This document shows positions 20,245 through 42,251 of a stretch of DNA of 64,000 nt, piece after piece. A program made the position numbers and the translations under genes. The number at the start of each line of letters is the position of its first letter. Position 1 is the first letter of the stretch. Source of the DNA: Kofleriaceae bacterium (GTDB lineage: Bacteria; Myxococcota_A; Polyangia; Haliangiales; Haliangiaceae); contig CBDCCZ010000018.1 in assembly GCA_965215005.1 (NCBI GenBank), positions 1 to 64,000 on the forward strand, in the 5' to 3' direction. The notes beneath the pieces were generated by a model that did not search any database, was not told the origin of the DNA, and saw only the letters and a list, made by a program, of their open reading frames with translations.

Positions 20245-20266
20245 CGACTCCGCCTCCTCCCGAGAT

Positions 20267-20653: not shown

Positions 20654-21700
20654 CTACAAGCGTTCTACTAACGTGAGAAACTCTTTACAGATCACTTCCG
20701 GCGACAGCTTTCGTGCAAGCGATTGGTGCAAGCGGTCACGATAACCCATCGGAGTTGGCCCAACATCGAACACATGACCGACTTCTACGGCAGCGCGTTG
20801 ATAATCGCCGAATGGATATAGCCTGAGCATGACTCTATCCGCGCACACCTCAGCGATCGCGCCAACGTCGCTGGCAACGACAGGACAGCCGCACATTAAC
20901 GCCTCCGCTACAGCCATGCCGAAAGACTCACAACGGCTCGTGACAAGGAGAAGGCCGCCACTCGCCGCTGCGATCTGGTAAATCCGAGCCATCGTGCCGT
21001 AAGGCACTTGATCTAGCCAACGCAGCTGCGTACCCAACCCCGCCTTGAAGGATTCGTTCAGAAGGTTCTGCTTCACCTCGTTCGGCGCAGTCGCACCACC
21101 AACCAGCCAGAGCTCGGGTCGCATGCCCTTGAGGGCGAGAGCGGCTCCCACCTCGACCAAGCCGCGCCAATTTTTGTGCTCGTCAAGCTTACCGACCCAA
21201 AGAACAATCGGCGGTTCCACGTGACTCCTGCGCACAGGATAAAAGGTAGCCGCCGCGACGCAGTTGCTCCACTGATGGATCGGAAATCTAGCGCCAAGGT
21301 GCGCGCTCACGATCCGGGAGGAGTACGCCGACGGCACTAGGATGGCGTCAACTCCGGGCAGCTCGCCACCTAAGGAGCGTAGGCCAGCGGGATAGGTGGT
21401 ATGGACCTCTAGGACGACTCTTCGCAGAGTCCGCGCTTTGCGCGCAGCCCCGAGTAATTCTGGAGTATCGATTACCGATAGGACATCGACGCGCTCCCGG
21501 TCGCAGTACCGTGCCAGAGCGGCCGCGCTATCGACGAAACACACTCGTTCGCCAGCCAAGGTCCCCGCGATTCCATGATCACTCATGAAAGCAAAATGAA
21601 GCTCTACCTCCGGCACCGAACCAAAACCGCTGACGCGATTCCTCAGCTGGGTGCAAACTCCGCCAAGGATCCCGTAGCGATAAGCGAATAGGATCTTCAT
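20654..21700 (-). CDS. GT4 family glycosyltransferase
   Basis: VGKLDEHKN and ESFGMAVAEALMCGCPVVASDVG motifs. Confidence 0.9.
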   Translation of the reverse strand: MKILFAYRYGILGGVCTQLRNRVSGFGSVPEVELHFAFMSDHGIAGTLAGERVCFVDSAAALARYCDRERVDVLSVIDTPELLGAARKARTLRRVVLEVHTTYPAGLRSLGGELPGVDAILVPSAYSSRIVSAHLGARFPIHQWSNCVAAATFYPVRRSHVEPPIVLWVGKLDEHKNWRGLVEVGAALALKGMRPELWLVGGATAPNEVKQNLLNESFKAGLGTQLRWLDQVPYGTMARIYQIAAASGGLLLVTSRCESFGMAVAEALMCGCPVVASDVGAIAEVCADRVMLRLYPFGDYQRAAVEVGHVFDVGPTPMGYRDRLHQSLARKLSPEVICKEFLTLVERL

Positions 21701-22440
21701 TCCAGCCGAGAGAGCAAATCGAGAGGAGAGGACACACGTGCTGCATAGGACGACGCCACCCTCAGTAGCTGCTCAGCGCCCTGCGAAGCGGTTACCGCGC
21801 CTCCGCAAGCGACCTCCGGCCACAGCTCCACCCGGAGGTTAGGAGCAAGAGCTACGACTTCATCGAATAGTTCCGCTGATCTACAATAAGCGATGTCACA
21901 GTTATTGAGAACATACGACGCAATTGCCATTGAGCCACTGTCGCCCAGGCCTCGGCCAGGTGCCAGCGACCAATCCTCGTCGCAAATACAGATCGTAAAC
22001 CAGCCGCTCGAATTAAACCGATTCAGCACCTGCGCGATCCAGAGACTCGGCACGCCAATGATGCAGAGCTTGATTCCTTCGACCTGCATTCCATTCAGCG
22101 CGTCAATGAGATACCCCATGGGTAGAGAAAAATGGACATCGTGGTTGGCGAATACACCCAGAGATCGGCAGTTTCCGCCTCCACGCGAGACAATCGCGTG
22201 GCGCTCTAGGAACGTGCGGCAGTACAGGTCGGCCACCGTTCCAGAGGCACGCCACGGTCGATCATCGATCCAGCAAACGAACTCCGCCCGCGGCCGCGCG
22301 CCAGCCTCGCTGAGCGCCCTCTGTACCGCCGCCTTGCGTTGCTGCGCCAAAAGTGTTCTCACGCGATTGAGACGCTTTCGCGCAAAGCCCGCAGAGAAAC
22401 GTAGCGGGTGACGAAATAATTTGCCGATAAATTGTCCCAC
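21697..22440 (-). CDS. Hypothetical capsule-locus protein, possibly a GT-B N-terminal half-domain
   Basis: Coupled between two GT genes; ICDEDW and CDIAYCRSAEL resemble GT-B elements. Confidence 0.55.
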   Translation of the reverse strand: MGQFIGKLFRHPLRFSAGFARKRLNRVRTLLAQQRKAAVQRALSEAGARPRAEFVCWIDDRPWRASGTVADLYCRTFLERHAIVSRGGGNCRSLGVFANHDVHFSLPMGYLIDALNGMQVEGIKLCIIGVPSLWIAQVLNRFNSSGWFTICICDEDWSLAPGRGLGDSGSMAIASYVLNNCDIAYCRSAELFDEVVALAPNLRVELWPEVACGGAVTASQGAEQLLRVASSYAARVSSPLDLLSRLE

Positions 22441-22445
22441 GACAC

Positions 22446-25400
22446 TTACTCAACCGCAGACGACCCACCGGCGCGTGCGTTAGATAATCTAGCAACTCTC
22501 CTCATGCTGCACAACCACCGGTAGGCCTCGACTTTGCTCGCCTTCCCAAACCTTTTGATTGTTCCCGATGGGCGCTGCTCCGTATACTTGTAAATCGGCT
22601 TATGGATAATACGGATATTTTCGGGACCGCACTGCTCAAGAAGAGGCAGCATCAATGCAACATCCGTACAATGCTTTAGCCAATCGCCGTCCGGCCCCTT
22701 AAGACCTTGCGGATCGACCCCATTAGCAAGAAAGCGGCGAAAAGATCGCGGAGGGGCACACTTGAAGAACGGCGCCTCGCGATATGCGGATAGCTCCACC
22801 GTCCGTTCGTTGTAGAATTCAAGTGGATTCTTTCGCCCAGCAGAGCTCATCCAGTTTCCGGAGGTGAGCAGACATTGAGGCGAGACTAAATACTCATCCG
22901 CAATTACTCGTAACGCGTGCGGGAGAAGTACATCATCAAGATCGAGAAGAACGCACACTCGCTGCGGATCTTTGACGCGCTGCAAGAGTTCCCACCGCGA
23001 GTATGCCGGACCGTAATTACTCTCATTTCGATAAATTCGTCGGCGAGAGTCGGCGGGCAGGGCGCATAGCGACTTCCATGTGTCATCGTCAGATCCATCG
23101 TCCAGCATGAGAGCTTCCCAGCTGTAGTGCCCCGGTACCTGTTCTACAAGGGAGCGCCAACAGTCCGGCACATGCTCTTCGCAGTTCCACCCTGGGACGA
23201 TGATTGAGAATTGGATCTGTGGAGCCCCGAGCAGCGCGGCGATCTGATGAACATCACCGCCGCGCACACGCGCCGACTCCAGTCTACCGCGCGGCGCCAC
23301 AACCTCGGCTGCGATGCGATGGATCGGTTCGAATGCCGACGCGGACCAAGGACCATGTGCCTGCGCGACGTGCGTCTCACCGGAGTCATCACGGCGAGCG
23401 TGAGCGAAGATGGTTTCGCCTTCATGCCGAATGGGCGCCAACCAGTTCCTCGGACGACTCTGTGCGATGAGCGGGACTCTCTGTCGCCGCGCCTGTATGG
23501 CAAACCATAGATCCGCAACACCGCGAGTCTTGAACTCATCGAACGCGATCTGCAGCGTTGAAGTATGATAAGCAATCGTCCCCGTTCCGAGGAGATGCAC
23601 GAACGCATCCTGAAGCAAGGCGTCGCCGAAGTGGAACACTTCTCGGCTCTCAGTGTAGCGCTGCAGCGGGTTGGCGAGATTGACACCGTGAACACCCACC
23701 ACAGCACGTCGATCGTACTGCTCGATCTTCATGATCGATCGCTGTACAAAGTCGCGCGGGTAGATGATGTCGTCATCTACAGTAAGATGGTACCCTGTCG
23801 CTACGCGCTCCGACCAGAAGAACTTGCCATTGTCCTTCTGATCACCGTACTCCTGGCTTCTAGCGACTTCGATGCGAGCGTCTTTCAGGAAATGAGGGAT
23901 CTCATTAAACCCGTTCAGGTACACGTTCAGCCTATCGACCTGCGGCAGCAGAGTGCTTACCACCTGTTCCAGGAGTTGCACCCTAGAAGGTATGGTTGCC
24001 ATCGACGCCGTGACGTACTGATCCTGCTGCACGGTGCGAGTAGGAAGAATGTCCACAGGCGCGGGAAATTTCCTGCGAAGTAGCGGGAACTCCAGACGCA
24101 GCGACGCCCCATCTGCGGATGCCTCCTGATGCCATTGGCGGGCAGCAGCGTAGTACTCGCGACGTGCCGCGGGTATCTGCACTTTTCCCATATCATCAAC
24201 TGTGATTCGTCCCACGCCGGCCGCAGTCAAGGCTCCGGCCGTAGAATAGGCGATGTAGAGAACGTGAGGAAGCCTGAGACACTTTTTACCAATTGATGTC
24301 TCGAGCCGCGCGATGAACTCGTCGTCGGCGCCAATCCGAGTCGAGTCGAAATAGCCGATACGGTCCAACACCGGTCTCCGTCTGAACAGCACTGCTGCTG
24401 GCGCCCGACGGTTCAACTTTCCCGCAACCACCTGCGGTTGTCCATCCATTGTTGCGCGTTGATATAGGCATATGCTGATCAGCTCATTAGTCTCCCGGAT
24501 CAGGTGGCCAACCTGCAGTTCGAGCCGGTGTCCTAGCGAGACGTCGTCCGAATCGTGCAGTGCCACCAACTCGCCGGTTGCTGCTGAAATTCCCAGATTC
24601 TTCGCAACGTAAGTTCCACTATTGCGCGGCGTCTGCAGTATCTTGATACGAGGGTCGTGATTGGCCTTGCGCCGCGCCACCTCCAGAGAATTATCGGTGC
24701 TGCAATCGTCTACTAAAATTAGCTCGATATTACTGTAACTCTGCTCCATCACGGAATCTATAGCCTGAGCGAGAGTAGATTCCGTGTTGAAGACCGTCAT
24801 GACGACGGAGACAGTCTGTGTCTGCGCGGCGAGTTGGCGCCCGACGTGCGCGAACCAGTCCGGCTTGCGCTCGAAGCAAAGCACGCTCACGAGTGGCCCT
24901 TCGCGTCGCGCAATTGGTGCGCCGACAGGAGGCCCAGCGTAGACGAAGTACCCCGAGAAATTCTCGCTATCTATGAACGTAGCGTTCGACTGCTTTACGA
25001 TGCCTACATCATCCAATGCCTGGACGAGCCGCGAAACATTGGGTCCAATGACCAGTGTTTCGATTTGGTTCAAGCCTCCGATCGCCAGATCTTCGATCAA
25101 TCTAGGCCTAAGTCTTGGTATGTACCGAATTATGCGAAGGCTCGCCGACCGAGTGCTACACGGCTCGGGCGCCATAGACGCGACAGCGTTCAGCAGTTGC
25201 TGGGGCAATTCTGTAGCGATGTACTTCGTGACTGCATCCTGCGACAGCACGACTAAATGACGGCTAACTCTCCAGCCCGAGGCAGCAGGCGCCAACCGAA
25301 ATTCCCGAAGTCCACCTAGGGGGATGTCGATAGCGCTTCGTATGGCTCTAGCATTGGTCTTCGTCGCGTCCCCGACCACCACCACGGCAGAACCTAGTGC

Positions 25401-26981
25401 CCGAGCCAGTCCGTAACGAAGGATGGCTGAAAGAGATGCCGATGCGGCAAACAGGTAAACCCGCGTACGAAGCGTCGGGAGACTGCTCATAAACGTGCAA
25501 AGCTCGCGGGCCTCCTTGGGACCAGCCAACAGCAGCAATTCATGCTCTGCCGACAACGCTCGCTCGTATTGTTTAACTGCGGCCAGCTGAGCACGAACAT
25601 CGCCGATCACCAACACGATAACCGAAGCTTTTGGGAGGACCCACTCCGCGTCGCCAAGGCTGCTGGAACTATCCTTAGCGAGACGTCGGTAGGCGTTGAG
25701 GCCCCACCGGTTCAGGATCGGGTTCTTGGCATCGGTAAGAAAACGTTCTGGCTTACTGATTAGCTTCACGAGCTTGCGAGCATAAACGGCCGGAGTCGCG
25801 GCCTCGGCCTGGTTTTCGCGATGCCTTTGCTGCAGTATGCTGTTTAGATACCGTGAATCGAGCACGAAGCGCTCCGGGTTCCTGCGAAGCTTTTGAGCCT
25901 TTTGTATCCCACGAACAGCCAGCGGACGCGCCTGCAGCTCTCGAGCCCTTACCAGACCATCTAGGCGATCAGCGAGAGACCCCTGGTGCCGGCTCATCTC
26001 ATGGACGCGAGAGGAGAGATTTTGGGTACTTCGCCGCAGTTCCTCGAGCACTTCGGCAATCTTGCTCATATCAGAGCTCAGCAGCGAGAGTGTTTGACGG
26101 CTTGTGCTTCGATTAGCTTCCTGCCACACGATCACCTCGTGCTCGAGTTTGCGGGTGCTCTTGCCCAATACCCCAACCGTAGAGTCGAGCTCTCTTAGGT
26201 GCGCAGACACTCGACGCATCTTAACGCCAATTCCTCTCAGCTCTGCCGCAGTGGCGTAATGGGCCTGAGCGCGCTGCTGATTGAGTACTTGTGGAGTAGG
26301 CCCGTGTGGGTCAAAAAATAGGGTAGGTGTGGCGTTGAACTGGCCAGCCGCAGCGTATCCCCAACCCGCGAGCCGCGCTTGAACTGTCGCAAACGATGCA
26401 TACGTAGCGCACTCGACGAATAAGAACGGTAGATCTCGACGAATGACCCCAGCCGCTCCTTCTAAGACGGCTTCCTCCATTCCCTCGACATCAATCTTCA
26501 TTAATCGGACTGGTCCCGGCAGTTCGAGCTCGTCTAAAGCGACGACAGTTACTGGGCCATCGCTGAGCTTCAAGCGGCATGTACCGAGGTTTCCGCTCGC
26601 TCCAGCCAGATCCAAAGACGCAGTCTGCTGCGCAGCTCCGAGCCCCATCGAGTGGGCCTGGATAGCATCTACCTGATTGTTGATCTCGATGTTCGCGGTA
26701 AGAACGTCGAATGCTTCCGGGTTAGGCTCGAAGGCGTGAACAGCCGCGCCACAGACGTTGGCGAAGAAGAGCGTGTGATTGCCGATGTAGGCTCCAGCAT
26801 CGATTACGATGTCCCCAGGTTGCAAGAGCGCGCGACAGTGCTCCAGCATGTCCTGCTCGTAGAACGAGCCGCTGTCGGCGATGTGGCGCTGAATGTGGTC
26901 GGACTGTCGATGCGGCAGATAGAACCGCGTAATGATGCCGTGTAGATCGATTGTTACGTCGGAGTTATTTCTTTCGGTCAT
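22446..26981 (-). CDS. Multidomain polysaccharide synthase: FkbM methyltransferase, coiled coil, GT2, GT45 (KfiA-like), GT2
   Basis: IDAGAYIGNH/AFEP/KIDVEG; VSVVM..VDDCSTD..GTYVAKN..DSDD; ATIPSR..DNGKF..DDDIIYP..LGTGT; FSIIVP..DDGSDD..DLDD. Confidence 0.9.
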   Translation of the reverse strand: MTERNNSDVTIDLHGIITRFYLPHRQSDHIQRHIADSGSFYEQDMLEHCRALLQPGDIVIDAGAYIGNHTLFFANVCGAAVHAFEPNPEAFDVLTANIEINNQVDAIQAHSMGLGAAQQTASLDLAGASGNLGTCRLKLSDGPVTVVALDELELPGPVRLMKIDVEGMEEAVLEGAAGVIRRDLPFLFVECATYASFATVQARLAGWGYAAAGQFNATPTLFFDPHGPTPQVLNQQRAQAHYATAAELRGIGVKMRRVSAHLRELDSTVGVLGKSTRKLEHEVIVWQEANRSTSRQTLSLLSSDMSKIAEVLEELRRSTQNLSSRVHEMSRHQGSLADRLDGLVRARELQARPLAVRGIQKAQKLRRNPERFVLDSRYLNSILQQRHRENQAEAATPAVYARKLVKLISKPERFLTDAKNPILNRWGLNAYRRLAKDSSSSLGDAEWVLPKASVIVLVIGDVRAQLAAVKQYERALSAEHELLLLAGPKEARELCTFMSSLPTLRTRVYLFAASASLSAILRYGLARALGSAVVVVGDATKTNARAIRSAIDIPLGGLREFRLAPAASGWRVSRHLVVLSQDAVTKYIATELPQQLLNAVASMAPEPCSTRSASLRIIRYIPRLRPRLIEDLAIGGLNQIETLVIGPNVSRLVQALDDVGIVKQSNATFIDSENFSGYFVYAGPPVGAPIARREGPLVSVLCFERKPDWFAHVGRQLAAQTQTVSVVMTVFNTESTLAQAIDSVMEQSYSNIELILVDDCSTDNSLEVARRKANHDPRIKILQTPRNSGTYVAKNLGISAATGELVALHDSDDVSLGHRLELQVGHLIRETNELISICLYQRATMDGQPQVVAGKLNRRAPAAVLFRRRPVLDRIGYFDSTRIGADDEFIARLETSIGKKCLRLPHVLYIAYSTAGALTAAGVGRITVDDMGKVQIPAARREYYAAARQWHQEASADGASLRLEFPLLRRKFPAPVDILPTRTVQQDQYVTASMATIPSRVQLLEQVVSTLLPQVDRLNVYLNGFNEIPHFLKDARIEVARSQEYGDQKDNGKFFWSERVATGYHLTVDDDIIYPRDFVQRSIMKIEQYDRRAVVGVHGVNLANPLQRYTESREVFHFGDALLQDAFVHLLGTGTIAYHTSTLQIAFDEFKTRGVADLWFAIQARRQRVPLIAQSRPRNWLAPIRHEGETIFAHARRDDSGETHVAQAHGPWSASAFEPIHRIAAEVVAPRGRLESARVRGGDVHQIAALLGAPQIQFSIIVPGWNCEEHVPDCWRSLVEQVPGHYSWEALMLDDGSDDDTWKSLCALPADSRRRIYRNESNYGPAYSRWELLQRVKDPQRVCVLLDLDDVLLPHALRVIADEYLVSPQCLLTSGNWMSSAGRKNPLEFYNERTVELSAYREAPFFKCAPPRSFRRFLANGVDPQGLKGPDGDWLKHCTDVALMLPLLEQCGPENIRIIHKPIYKYTEQRPSGTIKRFGKASKVEAYRWLCSMRRVARLSNARAGGSSAVE

Positions 26982-27067
26982 GCAAGTTCCTCGCCAGAGT
27001 CCAAGACTCGAACGTCAGTGCGTGAGCCGTGCGCCGTCGAAGATGATTGCATACCTCAGCCGCACGT

Positions 27068-28714
27068 TCAGCCGCCTGCAGGTGGTGCGTCCGCATCTGC
27101 GGCTCCGATCCCTTCAAGGGCATAGCTTCGTAAGAACTGGTATCTGCGCTGCAGTTCCGGCGCGTCTTCTGCTCGTGTAGACCAGCCGTGCTGCGCCAAT
27201 ACGGCTCGTTCGAACAGCAAGAACGGCGGCACCGGAGCCTTCGCACGGCCTCGCGCGGGTCGGCCAGGACACAGGCTGAAGACGTCTGCCGCGGCGAGAC
27301 GACGCGCCGCCACCATGGACAGTAAAGAATCGAGGTCGATACTGCCTTTCGGTGCGACGCATGCGACGTAAGGGGCCCCGACGCGGCGAGCGAGCGACTG
27401 GAAATCCATCATCTCCGAGGCATCTGTGCCCTGGGTCACCACCACGCGACCGGGAGCCGCCCCAGTCAATGTCTCGATTGCCTGCGCCGTCATCGGCTGT
27501 TCTAGATGACGCAGGATCACGTGCGCGCGCCAGAATGAAGGAGTCTCAGCGATCAATGCCGCGATGAATCGCGCTTCGTCTAGACCTCGTACGCAGCTTG
27601 CGACCACGATCGGCGGCGGTCCTTGGCGTGCCGATTCGAGCCCACTTTCCCTCAGCAACTGCCAGAGTCGATGCTCGTAGGTGTGATGTGCGAGTACCTG
27701 AAGAATCCCTTGCGCCGAACACCTGTCCCGATGAGCCTCATCCTCAAGCACCCTGTCGATCGCCGCGCGGGCTTCCTCGGTGGAGCCAACTGTGGCGACG
27801 ATGCCGCCAAAGAAGGAGTCGATGGCAGCGCTCGGCGCGCTCACGACGCACGCGCCGCAGGCAAGCATCTCGAACACGCGGCGCGAGAACATAGTCGGCG
27901 ACCCGGCCACTGAGTTGACATTGAGTGCCACCTTGCAGCGCCGATACTGCTCGGCCAGGTCACGGTAATCGAGCGCCCCGCGGACATAGGGTGCGAAGCG
28001 CGACGGGAACGCTTTCTCGGAGTCGCGCAGGGTCGCATTGCGGTCATAGATCTCCAGACGCCGATGCGACGACGCGTCGAGGAGCATCTCGAGATCCCGA
28101 CGCCGCTGAGGAAAATGCTGCTCGCCATAAGAACCGGCAAAACAGACCACATCCTGGCGCGACACGTTCCGCGGGTGGTAGAGACGCGGCTGAACCGCAA
28201 ATGGAAGCACGTGGACTCGATCTGCCGCCAGGCCGCAGACGCGTCGATAATCCTGCACTTTATCGGCATCTGTGGTGAAGACATAATCGAACAAGGCAGC
28301 CGCGGCAGCGAAGCGCTCGAAATGAGGCGGATCCTCTTTATTCCAAAACAGCGTCGGGATGGCGCGTCGGCGGCAATGCTGAATCAGCGACGATAGCGTA
28401 TCGTCATGCCGCCCCGCGTAGCTGGCGAGCCTGTAACTCCACGAGCCTCGCGCACCGCGCCACGCTGACTCGACGAATAGGACATCTGGCCGAAAAAGCT
28501 GGAGCTGCGCGCGCCAGGCACGTGCGTCGAGGTTGCAGAGTGTGACTTCGGGCGCTATCGAGAGTGCGGTGAATTCGTCGACCACTGCCGCAACGCGCAG
28601 CCGCTCGAGCGCAGTGTCCCCATTAGGCGGTCGCAATGCATTCCTTACGGCCCCCGGAAGGTCGCGAGCGGCGGCGACCGCGCGCTTTGCAGCTCGCCAA
28701 CTAGGTTTGGACAA
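27068..28714 (-). CDS. CgeB/Glyco_trans_1_2-type glycosyltransferase
   Basis: VDEFT, PDVLFVESAW, FWNKEDP, LNVNSV, FSRRVFEMLACG, HTYEHR. Confidence 0.85.
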   Translation of the reverse strand: MSKPSWRAAKRAVAAARDLPGAVRNALRPPNGDTALERLRVAAVVDEFTALSIAPEVTLCNLDARAWRAQLQLFRPDVLFVESAWRGARGSWSYRLASYAGRHDDTLSSLIQHCRRRAIPTLFWNKEDPPHFERFAAAAALFDYVFTTDADKVQDYRRVCGLAADRVHVLPFAVQPRLYHPRNVSRQDVVCFAGSYGEQHFPQRRRDLEMLLDASSHRRLEIYDRNATLRDSEKAFPSRFAPYVRGALDYRDLAEQYRRCKVALNVNSVAGSPTMFSRRVFEMLACGACVVSAPSAAIDSFFGGIVATVGSTEEARAAIDRVLEDEAHRDRCSAQGILQVLAHHTYEHRLWQLLRESGLESARQGPPPIVVASCVRGLDEARFIAALIAETPSFWRAHVILRHLEQPMTAQAIETLTGAAPGRVVVTQGTDASEMMDFQSLARRVGAPYVACVAPKGSIDLDSLLSMVAARRLAAADVFSLCPGRPARGRAKAPVPPFLLFERAVLAQHGWSTRAEDAPELQRRYQFLRSYALEGIGAADADAPPAGG

Positions 28715-28735: not shown

Positions 28736-29944
28736 GTGACGACTCTACTTCAACCGATGGCCGAGCGGCCAGCAAGCTGGTACGCTCGCGCGATCGTGCT
28801 CTCCGTGGTCATCCCATTGCGCATCGAGCGGCGCACTGCCTATCTCACCGAGCGGCTACGCGCGGCGTTGCGCTTTTTTGCGCCGCATCGGGATGTCGAG
28901 GTCGTGGTCGTCGATAGCGGCAGCTCGCGGCGTTACCGGCGTCACATTGCCGCCGCGTGTGCGGGCGGCTCGGCGGTGCTGGTCAAGGACGATGCGCCGC
29001 AGCGCCCGTTTGCGCCGGGGCGAACCAGAAACGTGGGCGCCGAGCGAGCGTCGGGCGACCACGTGCTGTTCTACGACGCGGACCTGTGTCCGCAGCCGGA
29101 GCTGCTCGACGGCATCCGGAATTGGCTCGCTCAGCCGCGCGAGCGCACCGAGTTCTTGATGATTCCGTGCATTTACTTGACCGCGGCGGCAACCGAGCGC
29201 GTTGCGCCGGGCGGCGTCCCGCCGGCCGACGGCGTCGACCTGTCGCCGTACTTTGAGTCGCTGCTGCGCGGCGAGAACGCGCTGGTGCGTCACGTGGCGG
29301 TGAGCACCTCAACGGTGGTCGTGAACCGGCGCTACTTCTTGGAGCTGGGTGGCAACAATCCGATCTATCGCGGCCACGGCTGTGAGGACTTTGATCTCTT
29401 GCACCGGTTGGCGTCGTTTCAGCCGATCGGCGGGCGTCCCGATGACTATTACCAGGACGCCAAGGATCGCTTCCCGGGCAACTATCGCGGATTCCGCGCG
29501 TATCTGGTCCACTATGGGCTCGTTCACTTGTTCGAGGGCCTCTACACCGCGCATCTCTGGCATGAACGCCCCCTGCACATCGGCTACCACCGGCGGCGTC
29601 AACGCAACGAGGCGTTGCTGCAGGAGATGATGCGGCGGCACGATGCGAGCCGCAGCCCCGGCCCCGATCTTCCAGCGCCCTGGCAAGAAGGCGAAAACCG
29701 CTCTCCGGTGCCGTCCCCTGAGGCGCTGATCACGAGCCTTCTCGAGCAACACGGTTATGGTGTCGCCTCGCATTTTGGGTTGTTTCGATGGCAGCATGGA
29801 TTGAAGGAAGCGACCGGCTCGCCAATCGACAAAGTTCGCAAGCTGGTACTTCGGCCGCAGCGCTTCTTCCAAGACTCGCGCATCGCGCCGTTGCGGCGTC
29901 TGGCGCGCGCGTTCTCCGCCGCTGCGGAGCGACGCTCCGACTGA
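28736..29944 (+). CDS. GT2-like glycosyltransferase with GT7-C-type motif
   Basis: LSVVIP, VVDSGS, RNVGA, YDADL, GHGCEDFD, HLWH. Confidence 0.88.
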   Translation: MTTLLQPMAERPASWYARAIVLSVVIPLRIERRTAYLTERLRAALRFFAPHRDVEVVVVDSGSSRRYRRHIAAACAGGSAVLVKDDAPQRPFAPGRTRNVGAERASGDHVLFYDADLCPQPELLDGIRNWLAQPRERTEFLMIPCIYLTAAATERVAPGGVPPADGVDLSPYFESLLRGENALVRHVAVSTSTVVVNRRYFLELGGNNPIYRGHGCEDFDLLHRLASFQPIGGRPDDYYQDAKDRFPGNYRGFRAYLVHYGLVHLFEGLYTAHLWHERPLHIGYHRRRQRNEALLQEMMRRHDASRSPGPDLPAPWQEGENRSPVPSPEALITSLLEQHGYGVASHFGLFRWQHGLKEATGSPIDKVRKLVLRPQRFFQDSRIAPLRRLARAFSAAAERRSD

Positions 29945-29961
29945 GGTTCAGATCTGCGGGC

Positions 29962-33374: not shown

Positions 33375-34397
33375 ATGCACAACGAAGTATCTCGTGATCC
33401 GATCGCGCGTCTCGGTCGCGCAGCGACAATGCGTGTTCCCGACGCTGCGCCTTCCACTGATCTATTGGCCGGTGCGCGAGAGCTTTTTCGCCATCATGCG
33501 CAGGCGATGGAAGCGCTCCAGAATCGCCTCGACGACACCTTCATCACCGCGGTTCAGCTCATTCTCCACTCCCCCGGACACGTCGTCTTCATCGGCATGG
33601 GCAAGTCGGGCCATATTGCGCAGAAACTCGCCGCGACGTTTGCTTCCACGGGGACGCCGTCGTTCTACATCCACGCCGCGGAGGCTCACCACGGGGACCT
33701 CGGGATGATTACCTCCCGGGACACCGCGATCCTGATCTCCTACAGCGGGGAGACCACCGAGGTCGTGCAGCTGTTGCCCCATCTCCAGAACCGCCGGATT
33801 CCGGTGGTGGCGCTGGTGGGTCGCCTGGCATCGACCCTCGGTCGTGCTGCCGATGCGGCCCTGGACATCTCCGTGGATCGGGAGGCGTGTCCGCATAATC
33901 TGGCTCCCACGACCTCTGCCATCACAACCATGGCCATGGGTCATGCGCTCGCAGTCACACTCATGCGCGAGCGCGACTTTTGCCCCGACGACTTCGCCCG
34001 CTGCCACCCCGGCGGCAGCCTTGGCCGGCGGCTCACTACACAGGTACGCCACGCTATGCGCGTCCACGACTTGCCGATGGTCTCTCCGAGCGACACGGTC
34101 GGGGAGGCGCTCGTCACAATCACGGAGGGCCGGCTCGGCCTGGCGTTGGTAATGAACGGCGAGCGGCTCGTCGGCCTCGTAACCGATGGCGACCTCCGTC
34201 GCGGCATGCAGCGCCATGAGAACCTGCTGGTCATGCCAATTGCCGAGATCATGACCCTTAATCCGGTAACCATCGACGAGAACGTGCTCCTCGACGTGGC
34301 ACACCAACGCATGCAACAGATGAAGCTGAAGGCACTGGTGGCGGTGAACAGCCGTGGTCGGGTGAGCGGCGTCGTCGAAGTTTTCAACGACGAGTAG
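33375..34397 (+). CDS. kpsF: Arabinose-5-phosphate isomerase (SIS + CBS)
   Basis: GMGKSGHIA, HGDLG, SYSGET, LAPTTS, HPGGSLG, TDGDLRR. Confidence 0.93.
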   Translation: MHNEVSRDPIARLGRAATMRVPDAAPSTDLLAGARELFRHHAQAMEALQNRLDDTFITAVQLILHSPGHVVFIGMGKSGHIAQKLAATFASTGTPSFYIHAAEAHHGDLGMITSRDTAILISYSGETTEVVQLLPHLQNRRIPVVALVGRLASTLGRAADAALDISVDREACPHNLAPTTSAITTMAMGHALAVTLMRERDFCPDDFARCHPGGSLGRRLTTQVRHAMRVHDLPMVSPSDTVGEALVTITEGRLGLALVMNGERLVGLVTDGDLRRGMQRHENLLVMPIAEIMTLNPVTIDENVLLDVAHQRMQQMKLKALVAVNSRGRVSGVVEVFNDE

Positions 34398-34413
34398 CGC
34401 GGCGGAAACAGCG

Positions 34414-35193
34414 ATGTCTTGGTCGCGCGGTTTGTTTGGTCAGCTCGAGGTGGTTTACGCGCTTGCTCTGCGCGAGACGCGGACCCGCTTCGGAGCGCAC
34501 CAGATGGGCTACCTGTGGGCACTCCTCGAGCCCACGATCATGATCGCGACCTTCGTAGCCGTCTTCGGTGTCGCTCATCGGAAAGCCCCGCCGGGCATGG
34601 ATCTCGTCGGGTTCATCGCCACCGGCATCATCACCTATACGTTGTTCGCCAACGCAACGAATCGAGTTGCCGAAGCCATCAACGGCAACAAGGCGCTGCT
34701 TTTTTACCCGCACGTTCAACCAATCGATCTGGTGCTAGCCCGGGGTCTGCTCGAGTTCGCGACCTACACCGCAGTTTTCGTGTTGTTCCTGGGCGGTCAG
34801 GCCCTGTTTCGCGAAACGCTGGACATCCACGATGGCTTGCTCGTCCTGCAAGGCCTGGCGTTGGCGGCGCTGCTCGGATCGGCGCTGGGGCTGATCTTCT
34901 GCGGGCTGAGCCAGTTTTCGAACGTCGCCGATCGCGCTCGTGGGCCCCTTTTGCGCCCCCTATTCTGGTGCTCGGGCATCTTCTTCTCGGCGAGCCAACT
35001 GCCGGACCGCGCGCGTGATCTGTCTCTCTACAATCCGGTCCTGCACATCATAGAAATGGTGCGGGCGGGGTGGTATGCGACGTATCCGGATGAGTACGTC
35101 GACACGTCGTACGTGCTTGCGTGGGTGCTGGGGCTCAGCCTTGCGGGTCTGATCCTCGAGCGACTCGTCCGGCGCAGGATTGAAGTCACATGA
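34414..35193 (+). CDS. kpsM: Capsule ABC transporter permease
   Basis: RETRTRFG..GYLWALLEP, SGIFF, NPVLHIIEMVR; about 6 TM segments. Confidence 0.92.
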   Translation: MSWSRGLFGQLEVVYALALRETRTRFGAHQMGYLWALLEPTIMIATFVAVFGVAHRKAPPGMDLVGFIATGIITYTLFANATNRVAEAINGNKALLFYPHVQPIDLVLARGLLEFATYTAVFVLFLGGQALFRETLDIHDGLLVLQGLALAALLGSALGLIFCGLSQFSNVADRARGPLLRPLFWCSGIFFSASQLPDRARDLSLYNPVLHIIEMVRAGWYATYPDEYVDTSYVLAWVLGLSLAGLILERLVRRRIEVT

Positions 35194-35852
35194 TCGAGCT
35201 TCGCAACATCACCAAGACCTATCGAACCATCGCTGGTCCCAACGTGGTGCTAGACGATATTTCGGTGGAGATACCACGCGGTGTAAGCGTGGGCGTCTTC
35301 GGCCGCAATGGTGCTGGCAAATCGACCCTGCTTCGGATCATTGGCGGTGCGGAGATGCCAGACTGCGGCGAGGTGCTCCGCGGCGGTAAGATCTCCTGGC
35401 CCCTGGGATTCTCCGGCGGCTTCAGCCCTTCACTCACCGGGGAGGAGAACTGCCGCTTCGTGGCTCGCATCTATGGCCAGGATGTGGACCGGGTCGTTGA
35501 CGAGGCAAGCGACTTCGCCGAGATTGGCGACTACTTCTATATGCCCGTGCGCACGTATTCGTCCGGCATGCGTGCTCGCCTCGCCTTCGGCTTGAGTATG
35601 ACGATAGATTTCGATGTCTATCTGGTCGACGAGGTCACGGCGGTGGGTGATAAATCGTTTCAGTCCAAGTGCCGGGATGCCTTCGTAGATCGCAGCGGCC
35701 GCGCTAGCCTCATCATGGTGTCGCACAACACCAAAACCTTGCAAGAGTACTGCGATATCGGAGCGGTTCTCCGCCAGGGCCAGCTGCAGCTATTCGACAC
35801 CGTAGACGAAGCCGCCCAAGAATACGAGCGCGGGATCGGCAAGGCGGCGTGA
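35190..35852 (+). CDS. kpsT: Capsule ABC transporter ATPase
   Basis: GRNGAGKST, ISWPLG, YSSGM, YLVDE, VSH; 220 aa with no C-terminal carbohydrate-binding extension. Confidence 0.95.
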   Translation: MIELRNITKTYRTIAGPNVVLDDISVEIPRGVSVGVFGRNGAGKSTLLRIIGGAEMPDCGEVLRGGKISWPLGFSGGFSPSLTGEENCRFVARIYGQDVDRVVDEASDFAEIGDYFYMPVRTYSSGMRARLAFGLSMTIDFDVYLVDEVTAVGDKSFQSKCRDAFVDRSGRASLIMVSHNTKTLQEYCDIGAVLRQGQLQLFDTVDEAAQEYERGIGKAA

Positions 35853-36754
35853 GTGAATCGACCGGCAAGACCGTGGGGGCTGGCAGTCGCGCCCGATCCC
35901 TCCGCCAGGCGCGTGCCAAGCGCATAGCGCGCCGCTTCGCGATCGTCGTCGGGCTGCCAACGCTGCTCGCCGTCATCTTTTACTGTTTCCTCGTCCAGGA
36001 ACGATATCGTTCCATCGTCCTCTTCCGCGTGGTGGATGCCGATGTACCGCTAGAGGACAAAGCGCCGCCAGAGATCAACCACTACCAAATTCTACGCGAG
36101 CTCATCCACTCGGAGACCATGGTGGAGCAGCTGCGGGCAGATGAGCTGCTAGAGCATTTCACCCAAGCTGGTGACTGGTTCTCTCGGCTCACACCCAACG
36201 CCGGCGTCGACGAGACCGCCGCGTACTACCGGGACAAAGTCGCAGTAGTACCTCCTTCTGCCGCTGGCTCAATCCGTCTCGAGGTGATCTCGTTCTCACC
36301 CAAAGCCGCTCAGACGCTCGCAGCGCACATCATCGGCCACGCCGAGGCGCTGTGGGCGGAGCGTGTACGCGGCGATCTTACACGCCGCATGGCTTCCGCT
36401 GAGTCGCTGGTCGCAGCGGCCAAACGGCGGGCGGCTGCAGCCCGCCAGGCGCTGCGGTCCCTACAGGAGGCTGGTGCCGAGCCGACCTCCGATGCATTTG
36501 GTGAGGCTCAGGTCGAGTACAAGGTTGCCCAAGAAGCGTATCAAACCGCCAAGCTCGCTGCCGCAGCGGCTCGCCTCGCGCATGACGCCCAGACGGTCAA
36601 AGAGCTGGAGATCCTCGGTGGGCCGACGCTGCCATCGTCGCATTTCTATCCCCGACGCATCTGGGGCATTCTGCGGGTGTTCTTCGTCGCCGCCGCGCTC
36701 ATGACGGTGGTGGGACTCCTTGCAGGCGCTGTGCGCGAGCACGCAAAGTTCTAG
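35849..36754 (+). CDS. kpsE: KpsE-like polysaccharide co-polymerase (short)
   Basis: Two terminal TM segments, periplasmic coiled coil, PTLP...YPRR, C-terminal VREH. Confidence 0.75.
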
Positions 36755-36756
36755 TC

Positions 36757-37590
36757 ATGAAACTGGCAGGTCGTGACATAGGGAATCATGAGCCTCTGTT
36801 TTTGATCGCGGGGCCATGCGTGATCGAGAGCGAGGAGCTCGTTCTTCGCGTTGCCGAAACGCTCGCCGAGCTTACCAACCGACTCGGCGTGCTCTATGTC
36901 TTCAAGGCAAGCTTCGACAAAGCCAACCGCACATCGGCACAGGCGCTGCGCGGGCCAGGCCTCGCCGAGGGTTTGCGTATTCTCGATAAGGTTCGCCGCG
37001 AGCTCGAGGTCCCGGTACTCACCGACGTGCACGAGTACACGCCAATCGACGAGGTCGCCGATGTCGTGGACGTCTTGCAAACGCCGGCCTTCCTGTGCCG
37101 CCAGACCGACTTTCTGCAGCGCGTCGCCCGAGCCGGCAAACCAGTGAACATCAAGAAGGGCCAGTTCCTCGCCCCGTGGGACATGGAGCACGTCGTCGGT
37201 AAGTGCCGCGCAGTCGGCAACGAAGAGATCATGATTTGCGAGCGCGGCTCCTCGTTCGGCTACAATGCGCTGGTATCTGACATGCGCGGACTCGCGGTCA
37301 TGCGCCACTTCGGCTGCCCGGTCGTGTTCGATGCCACTCACTCGGTTCAGCAACCGGGCGGGCTGGGCGGAGCCTCCGGCGGTCAGCGGCAGATGGTGCC
37401 AGTGTTGGCGAGGGCGGCGGTAGCGGCGGGCGTGGCGGGAGTGTTCATGGAAACCCACCCAGACCCCGACCGCGCATGGAGTGACGGTCCAAACCAGTGG
37501 CCTCTCCATCGCATGGAAGAGCTACTCGAGGTGCTGGTACGGATCGACAGACTGGTGAAGAGCCAGCCGTTTTGTGAGGACGACGCGTAA
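36757..37590 (+). CDS. kdsA: KDO-8-phosphate synthase
   Basis: [41 protein letters not shown]. Confidence 0.97.
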
Positions 37591-38882
37591 TGCGCGCGTC
37601 AGCGCCGGCGAATGTCGGGGCGCGGCTAGCATTGGTGCGATTGTTGGTGCTCGACGTCGACGGCGTGCTCACCGACGGCACGTTGTATTACGGCCCTGAA
37701 GGGGAAGTGCTCAAGCCGTTCCACGTCCGCGATGGGCTGGGTATCCACCGGCTGATCGAGGCCGGGATCGAGGTCGCCGTGATCACCGGGCGCGGCAATG
37801 CCGCCCTTGCACGCCGCCTCGCCGACCTAGGGATCGAGCACGTCGTAACCCGCTGCCAGGATAAGTGGGCGGGATTAGAGCCAATCCTTGAGCGCCTGGC
37901 AATCCCTCCAGACGCCATGGCGGTGGTGGGAGATGACATCGTCGATCTGCCGATGATGGACCGTGCCGGTCTTAGCATCGCCGTTGCCGACGCCCATCTT
38001 GAGGTCCGCCGTCGCGCGGACTGGACCACGGCTGTGGCTGGCGGACGCGGAGCGGTTCGCGAGATCGCCGACGCGCTACTGATGGCAAGGCAGGCGGAGG
38101 CGCCGCGCTTTCGCGTCGTCATCCCGGCTCGATTTGGCTCTACGCGCCTGCCCGGCAAGCCGCTCCTGCCAATTGCCGGCCGACCGATGATCGCGCACGT
38201 CTGGGACCGCGCGACCGAATCGGGTGCCACCGAGGTGGTGGTAGCCACCGACGATCAACGCATTCTCGACGCCGTCCATGCCTTCGGCGGGCGTGCGGTT
38301 CTCACCTCCTCGGATCATCCGTCGGGAACCGATCGTCTAGCCGAGGTGGCGCAGCGCGAAGGCTGGTCGGCGGAGGAAATCGTGGTCAACCTGCAGGGGG
38401 ATGAGCCGGGGATGCTACCGCCGCTCGTCCGCGAGCTGGCTATCGCATTGATGGGTCATCCAAGCGCCGGTATCGCGACGGCGGCGACCGCGATAGGCAG
38501 CACCATAGAGCTGTTCGACCCGGCCATCGTCAAGGTCGTTCTCGATGACCGCGGTATGGCGAGTTACTTCAGCCGCGCGCCGATTCCGTGGGTGCGGGGC
38601 ACGACGGAGCTCGGCCCCAACGGCATGAAGACCTTGCCACAGCACATCCCCTTCCTGCGGCACCTGGGCATCTACGCCTATCGCGTTGGGATGCTGCAGC
38701 GAATCACCAAGGCGCCGCCGTCGCTGCTCGAGCGCTGTGAGAGTCTCGAGCAGCTACGGGCCCTGGCGCTGGGAATCGGCATCCACGTCACCATCACCTC
38801 CGAGACGCCGCCTCACGGTGTCGACACGCAGAGCGATCTTGAACGGGCTGCGCGCGAGCTCGGCGGCAAAGGCTCTCGGTGA
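37590..38882 (+). CDS. kdsB: Fused KDO-8-P phosphatase (KdsC) and CMP-Kdo synthetase (KdsB/KpsU)
   Basis: N-terminal [24 protein letters not shown]-terminal [37 protein letters not shown]. Confidence 0.93.
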
Positions 38883-40978
38883 GCACGGCCAGCGTTGCGA
38901 CAGTATCTGGCCAACCGCCGAGATGGCGCAAAGTTGGAATCTTCTCCCCCGAGCTCGCCGCGCAACCGGATGCAGCGATGCTGATCGGCGCCGACACGTT
39001 GATCATGCGGCCCGATCGCCGGGGCATCCGCTCGCTCGACGCGATTATCGGCCGCGGTGAGGACGTTGCCGCGACGGCGTTCGCCAACCGCCACGGTCTG
39101 CCTTACTGGCGGCTGGAGTACGGATTCTTGCGCTGTCTCGGGGCCGCGGCCGGTCATCAAGCACCGCTTTCGGTCGTGCTCGATGATCGCGGAATCTACT
39201 TCGATAGCCGCTCGTCATCGCGTCTCGAGGCGCTGCTAGCCGGTGCCGACGGTTTTGCTCCACTCGGCGATCCAACGCTACTTGACCGCGCGCGCTCCGC
39301 CATGACGCGCATCGTCGACTGCGGCCTCACCCGCACCAACGATCATCCCGTCCGTCCACTTCCAGGCTGGCTGCGGTCCGGGCGGAAGCGCGTGCTGGTC
39401 ATCGATCAGCCCCGCAATGCCGATTCGGTGCGGCTCGGACGCGCTTCCGCGCGCAGCTTCGAGATCATGCTCGCCGCTGCCAGAGCCGAGCATCCCGGGG
39501 CCGAGATCCTCATCAAGACTCATCCACGCACCTCCGGCCGCCTTCGCGGTCATCTCGACAGAATCCGCGACGAACGCACGCGCATTGTGTCTGATGGAGT
39601 GAATCCCATCGAGTTGGTTCGAGCTGTCGCGGCCGTCTATGCGGTGACCTCGCAGCTCGGCTTCGAAGCGTTGCTCGCCGGCAAGCCGGTGTCTTGCTTC
39701 GGGGCGCCATTCTATGCTGGATGGGGCCTAACCGATGACCGGGTTCAGGTTCCCCGACGCACGCGCCGCCGCAGTCTAGAGGAAGTGTTCGCGGCCGCCT
39801 ATTTACTCTACGCCCGCTATGTCGATCCGAACACCGGTGGCGAGGGTACCCTCGAGCAGGTCATCGATCATCTCGCGCTGCAGCGTGAGCAGTTCGCGCG
39901 CAATCAGGGGCGGATCTTCTGCTTCGGGTTCAACCATTGGAAGCACAACTTCGTACGCGCGTACCTGCGCGCACCCGACAACCAGGTCACGTTCTTTCGC
40001 GACGCCAGCGTCATCGAGAAGCGCGGCTTTGATGCGCGCGCACGCCTCGTAGTCTGGGGCCAGAAAGCCACGCAGGAGTTGCGAGAGATCGCGATCCGTC
40101 ACAACGTGCCGATCTGGCAGATGGAGGATGGCTTCTTGCGTTCTGTCGGTCTTGGCTCAAACCTCGAGGCACCCGCGTCGCTAGTGGTGGATCGCCTGGG
40201 CGTTTACTACGATCCAACGCGGCCGAGCGAGCTCGAGCAGATTCTGCAGCATGGGAACTTCATGCCCGACGAGCTCGACCGGGCCCGCTGCCTCCGCGAT
40301 GCGATCGTGAGGGCGCGGCTCAGCAAGTACAACGTGGGCCGGCAGCTGCCGATCGAGGTGCCGCCGGGACGACGCATCGTCCTCGTTCCGGGACAGGTCG
40401 AAGACGACGCATCCATACAGCTCGGCTGCCGTGACATTCGCACCAACGAGGCCCTGTTGCGCGAGGCTAGACGCCAGCGCCCCGACGCGTTCATCATCTT
40501 CAAGCCACACCCTGACGTAGTAAGCGGCAATCGCACCGGCATGATCGCCCCAGCCCGAGCTCGCGCCCTCGCCGATCACGTCGAGGAAGGCGCGTCGCTA
40601 CCGGACTGCCTAGCAGTCGCCGATGAGGTCCACACCTTGACCTCATTGGTCGGCTTTGAGGCACTGCTGCGCGACAAGATGGTCGTGGTCTATGGCCAGC
40701 CGTTCTATGCCGGCTGGGGCTTGACCGAAGATCGGCATCCGGTGACTCGCCGAACCCGCCGACTCGAGCTCGATGAGCTAGTGACCGGGACGTTGATACG
40801 GTATCCGCGCTACATCAACTTACGAACCGGCCGCTTCACCACCCCCGAAGCCGTGATCGCCCACCTTCAGCACGAGCGCGACAGCAACCCCGCGGCGCAG
40901 GCGGTCCGCATTTGGGGGCCACGACGACAGCTGCGGCGGCTCGTGCAGGCGCTGCGAGGCATGCTTCATGCTCCTTGA
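38879..40978 (+). CDS. kpsC: Beta-Kdo transferase KpsC (two tandem domains)
   Basis: Duplicated domain with [20 protein letters not shown]; second domain has EDGFLRS, QVEDD, KPHP. Confidence 0.93.
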
Positions 40979-42251
40979 CTTCGACTCCACGCACGCGCTG
41001 CTGCTGCAGGGACCGAACGGGCCTTTCTTTCATCGATTCGCCAAGGAGCTCGAGCAGCGCGGTATGGCGGTTACCAAGGTGAACTTCAACGCCGCCGATG
41101 CTCTGTTCTTCCGCGGCCGCAATGCAATCTCGTATCGCGAACCGATGGAGCAGTGGCCGAGTTTCCTTCGCAATCTCCTGCGACGGAGCAGCATCGATAT
41201 CATCTTCTTATTCGGCGACTGTCGGCCGCTGCACCGACAGGCCACCGCCGTTGCAGCGGAGCTCGGCGTCCCGGTGTGGATGTTCGAAGAGGGATACCTG
41301 CGGCCCCACTGGATCACGCTCGAGCAGGGTGGCGTCAACGGCAACTCACGGATGCCGAAAGATCCGGAATACTACCGCCACGAAGCGCCGACTGGTGCGC
41401 TACCTGCGGTCGTGCCGGTGGGGCATACGTTTGGCTATGCGGCGCTGTGGACGATTCTGACTGCCATGGCCATCACGCTGCTCGGATGGCGCTATCCACA
41501 CTATCGGCACCACCGCGACTTCAATCTCTTCCGCCAGACTTGGCTCTGGGGACGAGGCTTTCTCCGCAAGTCATGGTATCGGCACAAGGAGCGCGACTTC
41601 ACCGCTCACCTGCGGGTGAGCCGCGCCCAGAACTACTTCTTCGTGCCCCTGCAAGTTCACTGCGATGCGCAGCTGGACCATTCTCCGTATGCGGACGTGG
41701 AAGAGTTTATCGTCGACGTGGTGACCTCGTTTGCACAGCACGCGCCGGCCGACGCGCATCTCATCCTCAAACACCATCCGATGGACTTGGCCTACCGTGA
41801 TTATGGGCCGCTCCTTTGTAGGCTCGGCAGCCAATACGATTGCGCGGAGCGTCTTCTCTACGTTCACGACGTGCACCTGCCAACACTGCTGCGTTACGCG
41901 CGCGGCACCATCACGATGAACAGCACCGTTGGGTTGTCTTCTCTCCAAGAGGGAACGCCGGTAAAGGTGATGGGCGCGGCGATTTACGATCTGCCTAAAC
42001 TCGTCTGCCAGCGCCCTCTGGCCGAGTTCTTCACCAGGCCCGGTACGGTCGACAAGCAGCTGTGTGATGCGTTCTGCAGGTGGCTTCGAGCGAGCAACCA
42101 GATCAATGGCAGCTTCTATAAGCGCCTAGAGGGCGCGACCACCGCGTCCGGTCTTAACCCAACGACGCCGGGCCGCTCTAGCAGCGCGAGCAACGGTCAT
42201 AAGGGTGGCACGAGCCTCCCGCGGTGGCGTCGCAAACCCTCCTCCACTTGA
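40968..42251 (+). CDS. kpsS: Beta-Kdo transferase KpsS
   Basis: LLLQGP.GPFF, FEEGYLRP, GVNGNS, PLQVHCDAQ, KHHPMD, NSTVG, QINGSFY. Confidence 0.93.
   Translation: MLLDFDSTHALLLQGPNGPFFHRFAKELEQRGMAVTKVNFNAADALFFRGRNAISYREPMEQWPSFLRNLLRRSSIDIIFLFGDCRPLHRQATAVAAELGVPVWMFEEGYLRPHWITLEQGGVNGNSRMPKDPEYYRHEAPTGALPAVVPVGHTFGYAALWTILTAMAITLLGWRYPHYRHHRDFNLFRQTWLWGRGFLRKSWYRHKERDFTAHLRVSRAQNYFFVPLQVHCDAQLDHSPYADVEEFIVDVVTSFAQHAPADAHLILKHHPMDLAYRDYGPLLCRLGSQYDCAERLLYVHDVHLPTLLRYARGTITMNSTVGLSSLQEGTPVKVMGAAIYDLPKLVCQRPLAEFFTRPGTVDKQLCDAFCRWLRASNQINGSFYKRLEGATTASGLNPTTPGRSSSASNGHKGGTSLPRWRRKPSST

Follow-up and report, generated by a model that had tools for sequence, protein, structure and literature searches.

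Genes and domain order of the locus

We analyzed a stretch of 64,000 nucleotides (hereafter, the window) from a Kofleriaceae bacterium (Myxococcota_A; assembly GCA_965215005.1, contig CBDCCZ010000018.1, positions 1 to 64,000), focusing on the 1511-amino-acid (aa) open reading frame (ORF) P0001. A preliminary description of this DNA, made from its letters alone, had read P0001 as a capsule synthase in which a methyltransferase, a coiled coil, a pair of glycosyltransferases (GTs) resembling heparosan synthase and one more family 2 transferase (GT2) are fused in a single polypeptide. In a run of minus-strand genes, P0001 comes second, after the gene of a 548-aa Glyco_trans_1_2 protein and before those of a 247-aa protein and a GT4 glycosyltransferase. 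A divergent GT2 gene and a block of kps-type export and linker genes are located on the plus strand (Table 1).

The P0001 frame is uninterrupted over its whole length, and its domains follow the order FkbM methyltransferase, helices, motif linker, a domain that we call X, GT2, GT45-like domain and third GT2. The same order was found in P0002 (1475 aa), P0003 (1506 aa), P0034 (1485 aa) and P0043 (1558 aa). Over the whole length, P0001 is 48% identical to P0002 and 40% identical to P0003; over the N-terminal 720 residues, its identity to the four homologues is 29-37%. An artefactual fusion or a pseudogene was ruled out by the intact frame and the architecture common to the four homologues. Their contigs were not among the 29 loci of a metagenome contig scan, which had been chosen by methyltransferase patterns. 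The four catalytic domains proposed for this ORF (FkbM, GT2, a second GT and a final GT2) were all matched; one more folded domain (aa ~452-715), the fifth, and a KLxxxPxxF motif present in two copies had been overlooked.

Table 1. Positions of the features discussed in the text. Nucleotide positions refer to the window unless a contig is named; residue numbers in the second column refer to P0001.
Feature	Position	Strand	Remarks
Whole ORF P0001	22446..26981	-	1511 aa, ATG start, stop codon included; four homologues with the same architecture
FkbM-family S-adenosylmethionine (SAM) methyltransferase domain	26310..26960	-	aa 8-224; confident AlphaFold2 fold
Long helical spacer, candidate coiled coil	25932..26291	-	aa 231-350; helices 231-287 and 291-350
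Helical linker with two KLxxxPxxFxxD motifs	25665..25925	-	aa 353-439
Motif copies in P0001	25842-25880 and 25728-25766	-	aa 364-376 and 406-418
Domain X, GT-A/nucleotidyltransferase-like fold without DXD	24837..25628	-	aa 452-715; AlphaFold2 predicted local distance difference test (pLDDT) 80.9
GT2 domain, equivalent of the PmHS2 glucuronic acid (GlcA)-transferase domain	24027..24821	-	aa 721-985; PF00535 from aa 725
GT45-like domain, equivalent of the PmHS2 N-acetylglucosamine (GlcNAc)-transferase domain and KfiA	23322..24017	-	aa 989-1220
Third glycosyltransferase, GT2	22482..23210	-	aa ~1258-1500
DXD motifs, metal binding	DSDD 810-813 and DDD 1069-1071		aligned with PmHS2 motifs; invariant in three sequences
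PmHS2 Asp291, GlcA-transferase base	D886		invariant in three-sequence alignment
PmHS2 Asp569, GT45 nucleophile	D1157		invariant in three-sequence alignment
PmHS2 Arg264, binds acceptor GlcA carboxylate	R859		adjoining R858 invariant in three sequences
PmHS2 Arg345, binds acceptor GlcA carboxylate	R941		adjoining R940 invariant in three sequences
PmHS2 Arg242, binds acceptor GlcA carboxylate	Ile837		not conserved
PmHS2 His296, self-priming site	Ala891		not conserved
Looser motif KLFRHPLRF	22399-22425	-	N-terminus of the 247-aa downstream protein
Motif at the C-terminus of the 402-aa GT2	29840-29878	+	protein ends with KLVLRPQRFFQDS
GT4 glycosyltransferase, downstream	20654-21700	-	
247-aa protein of no family, downstream	21697-22440	-	
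548-aa Glyco_trans_1_2 protein, upstream	27068-28714	-	
402-aa GT2, divergent	28736-29944	+	
kps-type export/linker block	33375..42251	+	kpsF, kpsM, kpsT, kpsE-like, kdsA, kdsC-kdsB fusion, kpsC, kpsS; 6 kb from P0001
KdsC (3-deoxy-D-manno-octulosonate [Kdo]-8-P phosphatase)-KdsB (cytidine monophosphate [CMP]-Kdo synthetase) fusion	37590-38882	+	430 aa; inside the kps block
kps block of relative G017	L122 (G017:C41) 5872-15145		653-aa protein wedged between kdsC and kdsB

The heparosan-synthase-like core

Based on a search of solved structures, aa 721-1220 align in a single stretch with residues 34-540 of Pasteurella multocida PmHS2 ("heparosan synthase B", 8vh7_A; E 1.5e-82, 280.8 bits), while a sequence search of the same kind matched aa 989-1184 to E. 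coli KfiA (5z8b; E 1.1e-17). The proposed colinearity of the middle pair with heparosan synthase was borne out, end to end for PmHS2 and over aa 989-1184 for KfiA, and the nucleotide range given for the pair (24812-23345) corresponds to aa 724-1212. The same KfiA match answers the proposed test of the second GT against GT45. The motifs named in the preliminary description were all visible in the PmHS2 alignment or in the translation (GTYVAKNLG, DSDD, IGYFDSTRIGADDEF, IPSR, DNGKF, DDDIIYP, GVHG, LGTGT and SRPRNWL); AR..Y is only loosely common to P0001 and PmHS2.

Residue roles were taken from a 2026 preprint on PmHS2 (bioRxiv 10.64898/2026.10.20.760405). PmHS2 numbering equals the 8vh7_A chain number plus 92, and equivalents were counted by position in the alignment. 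The catalytic base, the nucleophile and both DXD motifs are retained in P0001 (Table 1); according to the same preprint, the Asp569 equivalent is present in all but one of 51 GT45 representatives. The sequence match, the DXD motif and D1157 place the second domain in GT45, the KfiA family. The colinear GT2 and GT45 domains, together with both DXD motifs, the base and the nucleophile, fit a bifunctional heparosan synthase. Judged from these sequence features, the GT2-GT45 pair very probably works as an alternating co-polymerase like those of heparosan synthases.

The third glycosyltransferase and the nature of the product

When the C-terminal 286 residues were scanned alone, PF00535 was matched at aa 1259-1363 (domain residues 34-138; E 2.7e-15). 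In the signatures DDGS (1294-1297) and DLDD (1347-1350) of this third GT2, residues D1294, D1295, S1297, D1347, D1349 and D1350 are invariant in 11 sequences. The same type of domain is fused after GT45 in loci L008 (a Roseovarius metagenome-assembled genome, MAG), L012 (Paracoccus haematequi) and L007 (a Rhodobacteraceae MAG), the last without any PmHS2-like GT2. An intact third GT2 and the neighboring GT4, GT2 and Glyco_trans_1_2 genes imply that the product would be more complex than heparosan; with four more glycosyltransferase-like genes close by, branches in the polymer or a repeat of larger size are possible.

A repeat other than that of heparosan, be it a trisaccharide or a branched unit with alpha-GlcNAc, or one with another uronic acid or anomeric linkage, is a serious possibility, if less than an even one, and it would be compatible with either role of the methyltransferase discussed below. 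The conserved signatures of the third GT2, the L007 fusion, the flanking transferase genes, the fusion of GT45 to GT25 in three other loci (L009, L013 and L048) and the replacement of PmHS2 Arg242 by Ile837 all point in this direction. They are set against a match that covers the whole PmHS2 catalytic region and a core in which the base, the nucleophile, both DXD motifs and two of the three carboxylate-binding arginines are kept, as well as a uridine diphosphate (UDP)-glucose dehydrogenase-like gene in the genome. The "heparosan-like GlcA-GlcNAc" product of the preliminary description is weakened, as an account of the whole product, by the third GT2, the flanking genes and the substitution at Arg242.

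A supply of UDP-GlcA is plausible because a TuaD-like UDP-glucose 6-dehydrogenase is encoded elsewhere in the genome. Genes similar to tviB and tviC (UDP-GlcNAc 6-dehydrogenase and 4-epimerase) were also located outside the window, at L082 (G000:C13) 469-2868; from these sequences, the organism can probably make UDP-GalNAcA-type sugars too. A PmHS homologue of Comamonas reportedly makes "testosteronan", a heparosan analogue; a literature search for this name gave nothing relevant.

The adjoining kps-type capsule locus

The products of the kps block were assigned by profile searches: KpsF (TIGR00393, 322 bits), KpsM (NF050053, E 9.7e-41), the KpsE family (E 3.5e-23), and KpsC and KpsS (PF05159, E 2.5e-87 and 2.9e-75, respectively). 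KpsS also matched NF050054 (E 3.1e-108), under its equivalog cut-off, and KdsA, KdsC and KdsB were all above the profile cut-offs. As annotated from these sequences, P0001 is adjoined by a kps-type (group 2-like) ATP-binding cassette (ABC)-transporter capsule locus, in which the transporter, KpsE, KpsC/KpsS and CMP-Kdo genes are present. The guanine-plus-cytosine content drops to 0.57-0.60 across positions 20000-28000 (0.57 at 22-26 kb), against 0.65-0.71 on the flanks, which fits a serotype-specific region that is exchanged horizontally.

Two proteins are encoded in the interval that separates the kps block from the serotype genes. One is a 584-aa DUF3943 protein with a signal-like N-terminus (29788-31542, plus strand); the Atlas cluster nearest to it occurs most often in Myxococcota, the only hint bearing on the myxobacterium-like organism of the preliminary description. 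The other, of 517 aa, has five CarboxypepD_reg repeats (31551-33104, minus strand). Directly after kpsS, on the opposite strand, a PIN-PhoH fusion protein is encoded (42303-43610, minus strand). The capsule region is flanked by a pair of Ser/Thr protein kinases, of which one has a PEGA domain, and by receiver-GGDEF and GAF-GGDEF proteins (8404-10911, 15793-17964, 17897-18781 and 43694-45874, all on the minus strand); these kinases and GGDEF proteins may act as regulators. The Atlas look-up of the 247-aa downstream protein (P0045) gave a best score of 0.88 and no family.

The methyltransferase domain

The N-terminal domain scored 52 bits with PF05050 (cut-off 22.7; aa 61-194) and 82.3 bits with TIGR01444 (cut-off 37.7; aa 59-191). 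In its glycine-rich SAM-binding motif, VIDAGAYIGNHT at aa 59-70, residues D61, G63, A64 and G67 are invariant in the five full-architecture proteins (P0001 and its four homologues), as is the whole KIDVEGME signature (K162-E169). That neither signature varies at 29-37% identity speaks for a methyltransferase activity kept by selection.

Residues 1-720 were modelled with AlphaFold2 from a five-sequence alignment (mean pLDDT 67.6), and the helices of the model were assigned with DSSP. This model comprises the methyltransferase (8-224), two long helices (231-287 and 291-350), shorter helices (353-439) and an alpha/beta domain (452-720). The best Foldseek match of the 720-aa model was the FkbM structure 2py6 (E 2.1e-07), and only methyltransferases were found among the 50 matches listed.

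The position of the methyl group would determine the role of such an enzyme. In a 1->4-linked backbone such as that of heparosan, terminal O-4 methylation would necessarily stop growth because the chain extends through O-4, while methylation elsewhere would only decorate the polymer; the sequence cannot separate the two.

The motif linker and domain X

The motif RKLxKLxxxPxxFxxD is located directly N-terminal to domain X. Across an alignment of 12 proteins, R402, P411 and F414 never vary, while K406 and D417 are nearly invariant. The form of the motif that ends in DS had no match in 1,136,015 residues of ORFs from 80 related genome loci; a single methyltransferase pattern and a single GT45 pattern had served to retrieve these loci, which makes them a biased sample for co-occurrence. 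A looser pattern (D followed by S or A) had three matches in the six frames of the window, all of them in real frames of this gene cluster. The recurrence of the motif within one cluster is not due to chance, given the absence of the DS-ending form from the 80 loci; it may represent a shared docking or membrane peptide.

Domain X was folded separately from a 12-sequence alignment. With VIA-align, residues ~53-213 of the model matched GtrB (9nye_A; Z 11.4, root-mean-square deviation 3.5, 150 aligned residues) and ArnC (8vxh_A; Z 11.0). Foldseek concurred, with matches to GT-A glycosyltransferases and nucleotidyltransferases, while no Pfam family was detected at E values up to 1. Domain X is rare: a search of 1.84 billion representative proteins gave 12 relatives at E up to 0.001, and in each of them a PmHS2-like GT2 follows on the C-terminal side. 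Since the 12-protein alignment has no conserved DXD at the expected place, domain X is probably a non-catalytic pseudo-glycosyltransferase, as judged from the predicted fold.

Related proteins and loci

No full-length match to P0001 was present in the genomes of 40 relatives. The best partial matches were found in G017 (aa 671-983), G011 (methyltransferase only) and G024; in G015, the methyltransferase and GT45 pieces are in one 1462-aa frame. G017, a relative of the same family, encodes a 653-aa protein that combines the motif with domain X and a PmHS2-like GT2, with no GT45, and its gene is inserted in the kps block (Table 1). This gene position suggests a role of domain X and the motif at the junction with the Kdo-linker machinery, and the G017 arrangement hints at a priming or "transition" role of the module formed by motif, domain X and GT2. 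The 254-aa protein encoded after this short gene has no similarity to P0045 (E 0.32).

In seven of the 80 loci (L004, L007, L009, L013, L015, L037 and L048), an FkbM domain and a GT45-like domain are fused, with the methyltransferase always at the N-terminal extreme, as in the five full-architecture proteins. Their partner domain is a GT2 in L004, L015 and L007 and a GT25 in L009, L013 and L048; Pfam identified none in L037. The L004 fusion (Ciceribacter ferrooxidans) adjoins kpsM, kpsT and kpsC homologues. The FkbM, GT45-like and GT25 proteins of L009, L013 and L048 come from alphaproteobacteria and Sinobacteraceae and are 1486 to 1623 aa or more in length; on their domain content, they form a wider class of multi-module enzymes with a methyltransferase and GT45.

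Homologues of the 548-aa Glyco_trans_1_2 protein are encoded near FkbM methyltransferase genes in 12 of the 80 loci; in L015, a 1246-aa homologue is found beside the methyltransferase-GT2-GT45 fusion.

The predicted helical spacer

A coiled coil had been proposed at aa 245-350. Long helices were indeed predicted there, and the two best segments of the whole P0001 in a heptad score were 245-284 and 295-333, although the confidence of the model in this region is low. The score is crude and uncalibrated and was judged against shuffles; by this standard, the heptad signal after the methyltransferase was above the shuffles in four of the five full-architecture proteins. The spacer is poorly conserved and of variable length among homologues; between the methyltransferase signature and the first motif, the five proteins have 177 to 234 aa. 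A two-copy complex prediction for aa 226-352 scored 0.01 against a mark of 0.42, which speaks neither for nor against self-association. By position alone, the methyltransferase (8-224) is at that end of the predicted long helices (231-350) which is distal from the transferases (721-1500).

Proposed function and alternative readings

By analogy with characterized systems, P0001 may be the serotype-specific polymerase of a kps-type, poly-Kdo-anchored capsule with a built-in methyl terminator, an interpretation that we prefer and regard as only just short of an even chance. In the mechanism that we propose, the GT2-GT45 pair would add alpha-GlcNAc in alternation with a beta-linked uronic acid, which is probably GlcA. 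The resulting heparosan-like backbone would be built on the Kdo-lipid that KpsS and KpsC make and would be extended at its non-reducing end. A further sugar, either a branch or a priming or adaptor residue, would be added by the third GT2. The methyltransferase, kept off the polymerase by the helical arm, would O-methylate the non-reducing terminal sugar, and an O-4 methyl group would block growth; a chain would be capped on reaching the methyltransferase and its length would be limited in this way. The KLxxxPxxFxxD motifs and the pseudo-GT-A domain would dock the enzyme to the membrane or to the Kdo-linker machinery.

In addition to the more complex product and the substitution at Arg242 considered above, several observations count against the terminator interpretation. 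The two spacer helices have low confidence (pLDDT ~37-58), contain glycines and could fold back on each other. The heptad score failed in P0002, and among the seven related methyltransferase-GT45 fusions the signal was present in just three and failed in four. Neither the methyl acceptor nor the methylated position is readable from the sequence. KpsT, at 220 aa with ABC_tran at 21-151 only, has no cap-reading carbohydrate-binding module, which counts against a strict O-antigen-style mechanism. No KpsD-type exporter is encoded in the window, Poly_export (PF02563) being matched only on contigs C19 and C44. Finally, in seven of the 20 loci with a GT45-like ORF (20 of 80) that ORF also has an N-terminal FkbM domain, a fraction that is biased by the retrieval.

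The main rival is a decorating enzyme, in which FkbM would O-methylate internal residues (O-2 or O-3 of the uronic acid, O-3 or O-6 of GlcNAc), the helices would serve as a scaffold or for oligomerization, and chain length would be set by synthesis and export, as is supposed for the other capsules of ABC-transporter type. We consider this somewhat unlikely. The simple KpsT and the weakness of the helical prediction, including the missing heptad signal in four of the seven fusions, fit such an enzyme. A 2025 review states that, for ABC-transporter capsules, no factor that controls length is known (PMC12220298), the capsule of Haemophilus influenzae type b is described as lacking a terminating residue (Kelly et al. 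2024, PMC11231755), and PmHS2 itself is a homodimer without a coiled coil (bioRxiv 10.64898/2026.10.20.760405). Nevertheless, a decorating enzyme has no obvious need for ~120 helical residues and a linker between itself and the polymerase, and the position of the methyltransferase at the N-terminal extreme of five plus seven proteins is the layout of proven terminators. That the methyltransferase, domain X or both are non-catalytic relics of what is simply a large heparosan-type synthase is very improbable: although the shorter P0035-P0038 and P0040 keep just a degenerate methyltransferase remnant before the motif, domain X and GT2, and domain X lacks a DXD motif, neither the SAM-binding nor the KIDVEGME signature varies among P0001 and the four other full-length proteins.

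If the terminator interpretation is correct, P0001 might be the first known kps-type capsule polymerase that carries its own terminator and ruler, its heparosan-like chain being capped at a length that the coiled-coil arm would determine, and domain X with its motif, which is shared with the neighboring GT2, an undescribed docking module to the Kdo-linker machinery; we hold this wider claim to be doubtful. In our literature search, neither a heparosan-type synthase-methyltransferase fusion, by title or abstract, nor a coiled-coil ruler in a kps capsule was found to be described. In the sections of the 2025 review that address it, length control of ABC-transporter capsules "warrants further investigation" and the question is raised whether "a yet-to-be identified factor" exists (PMC12220298). 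A heparosan-synthase homologue with a candidate terminator makes the length question testable with one recombinant protein. Heparosan of narrow, defined size is also named as a biomanufacturing goal in the literature excerpts consulted, and a natural synthase with length control would be of practical interest. Additionally, domain X and the shared motif may show how serotype-specific transferases join the conserved Kdo-linker machinery.

Comparison with known systems

P0001 shares with PmHS2 and PmHS1 the colinear GT2 and GT45 domains in one chain, the DXD motifs, the Asp291 and Asp569 equivalents and the association with ABC-transporter capsule loci. It differs from them in ~720 extra N-terminal and ~290 extra C-terminal residues, in the Ile that replaces Arg242 and in the Ala that replaces the self-priming His296. 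The likeness to E. coli K5 consists of the KfiA match over aa 989-1184 and of a kps-type locus with KpsC, KpsS, KpsM and KpsT; in K5, however, the transferases KfiA and KfiC are separate proteins and there is no methyltransferase.

The preliminary description had compared the methyltransferase and coiled coil with the terminator/ruler design of WbdD. The domain order and the predicted helices fit such a design, but WbdD is not the closest analogue. WbdD of E. coli O9a shares the concept, in which an enzyme carried on a coiled-coil ruler adds a cap that contains methyl, but, in the accounts consulted, it has no polymerase (WbdA is separate) and it adds methyl-phosphate. It was not among the 50 Foldseek matches listed for the N-terminal model, and a literature search on FkbM methyltransferases and O-antigen termini gave nothing relevant among the listed titles.

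Nearer to P0001 are Klebsiella pneumoniae O12 WbbB and O7 ORF6, in which, according to parts of a 2024 paper, terminator, coiled coil and polymerase modules are found in one protein; in the characterized systems covered there, the terminator is always distal on the coiled coil (PMC11231755). As far as these parts describe them, both proteins have an N-terminal terminator (in ORF6, a methyltransferase-kinase), a helical spacer and C-terminal transferases, and they belong to ABC-transporter-dependent systems. Their O antigens are undecaprenol-linked and the cap is read by a Wzt module, whereas the P0001 locus is of the Kdo-lipid type and its KpsT is without such a module. The likeness is one of layout, and the coiled coil of P0001 is only predicted.

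WsaE of Geobacillus stearothermophilus offers a further parallel: in the part of its description that we used, an N-terminal methyltransferase caps the chain made by the two transferase domains of the same protein (PMC2943079). It has in common with P0001 an N-terminal methyltransferase, a capping one in WsaE, and two polymerizing domains in one chain; it differs in making an S-layer rhamnan in a Gram-positive host. By analogy of layout, the closest counterparts of P0001 would be Klebsiella O12 WbbB, O7 ORF6 and Geobacillus WsaE, rather than WbdD.

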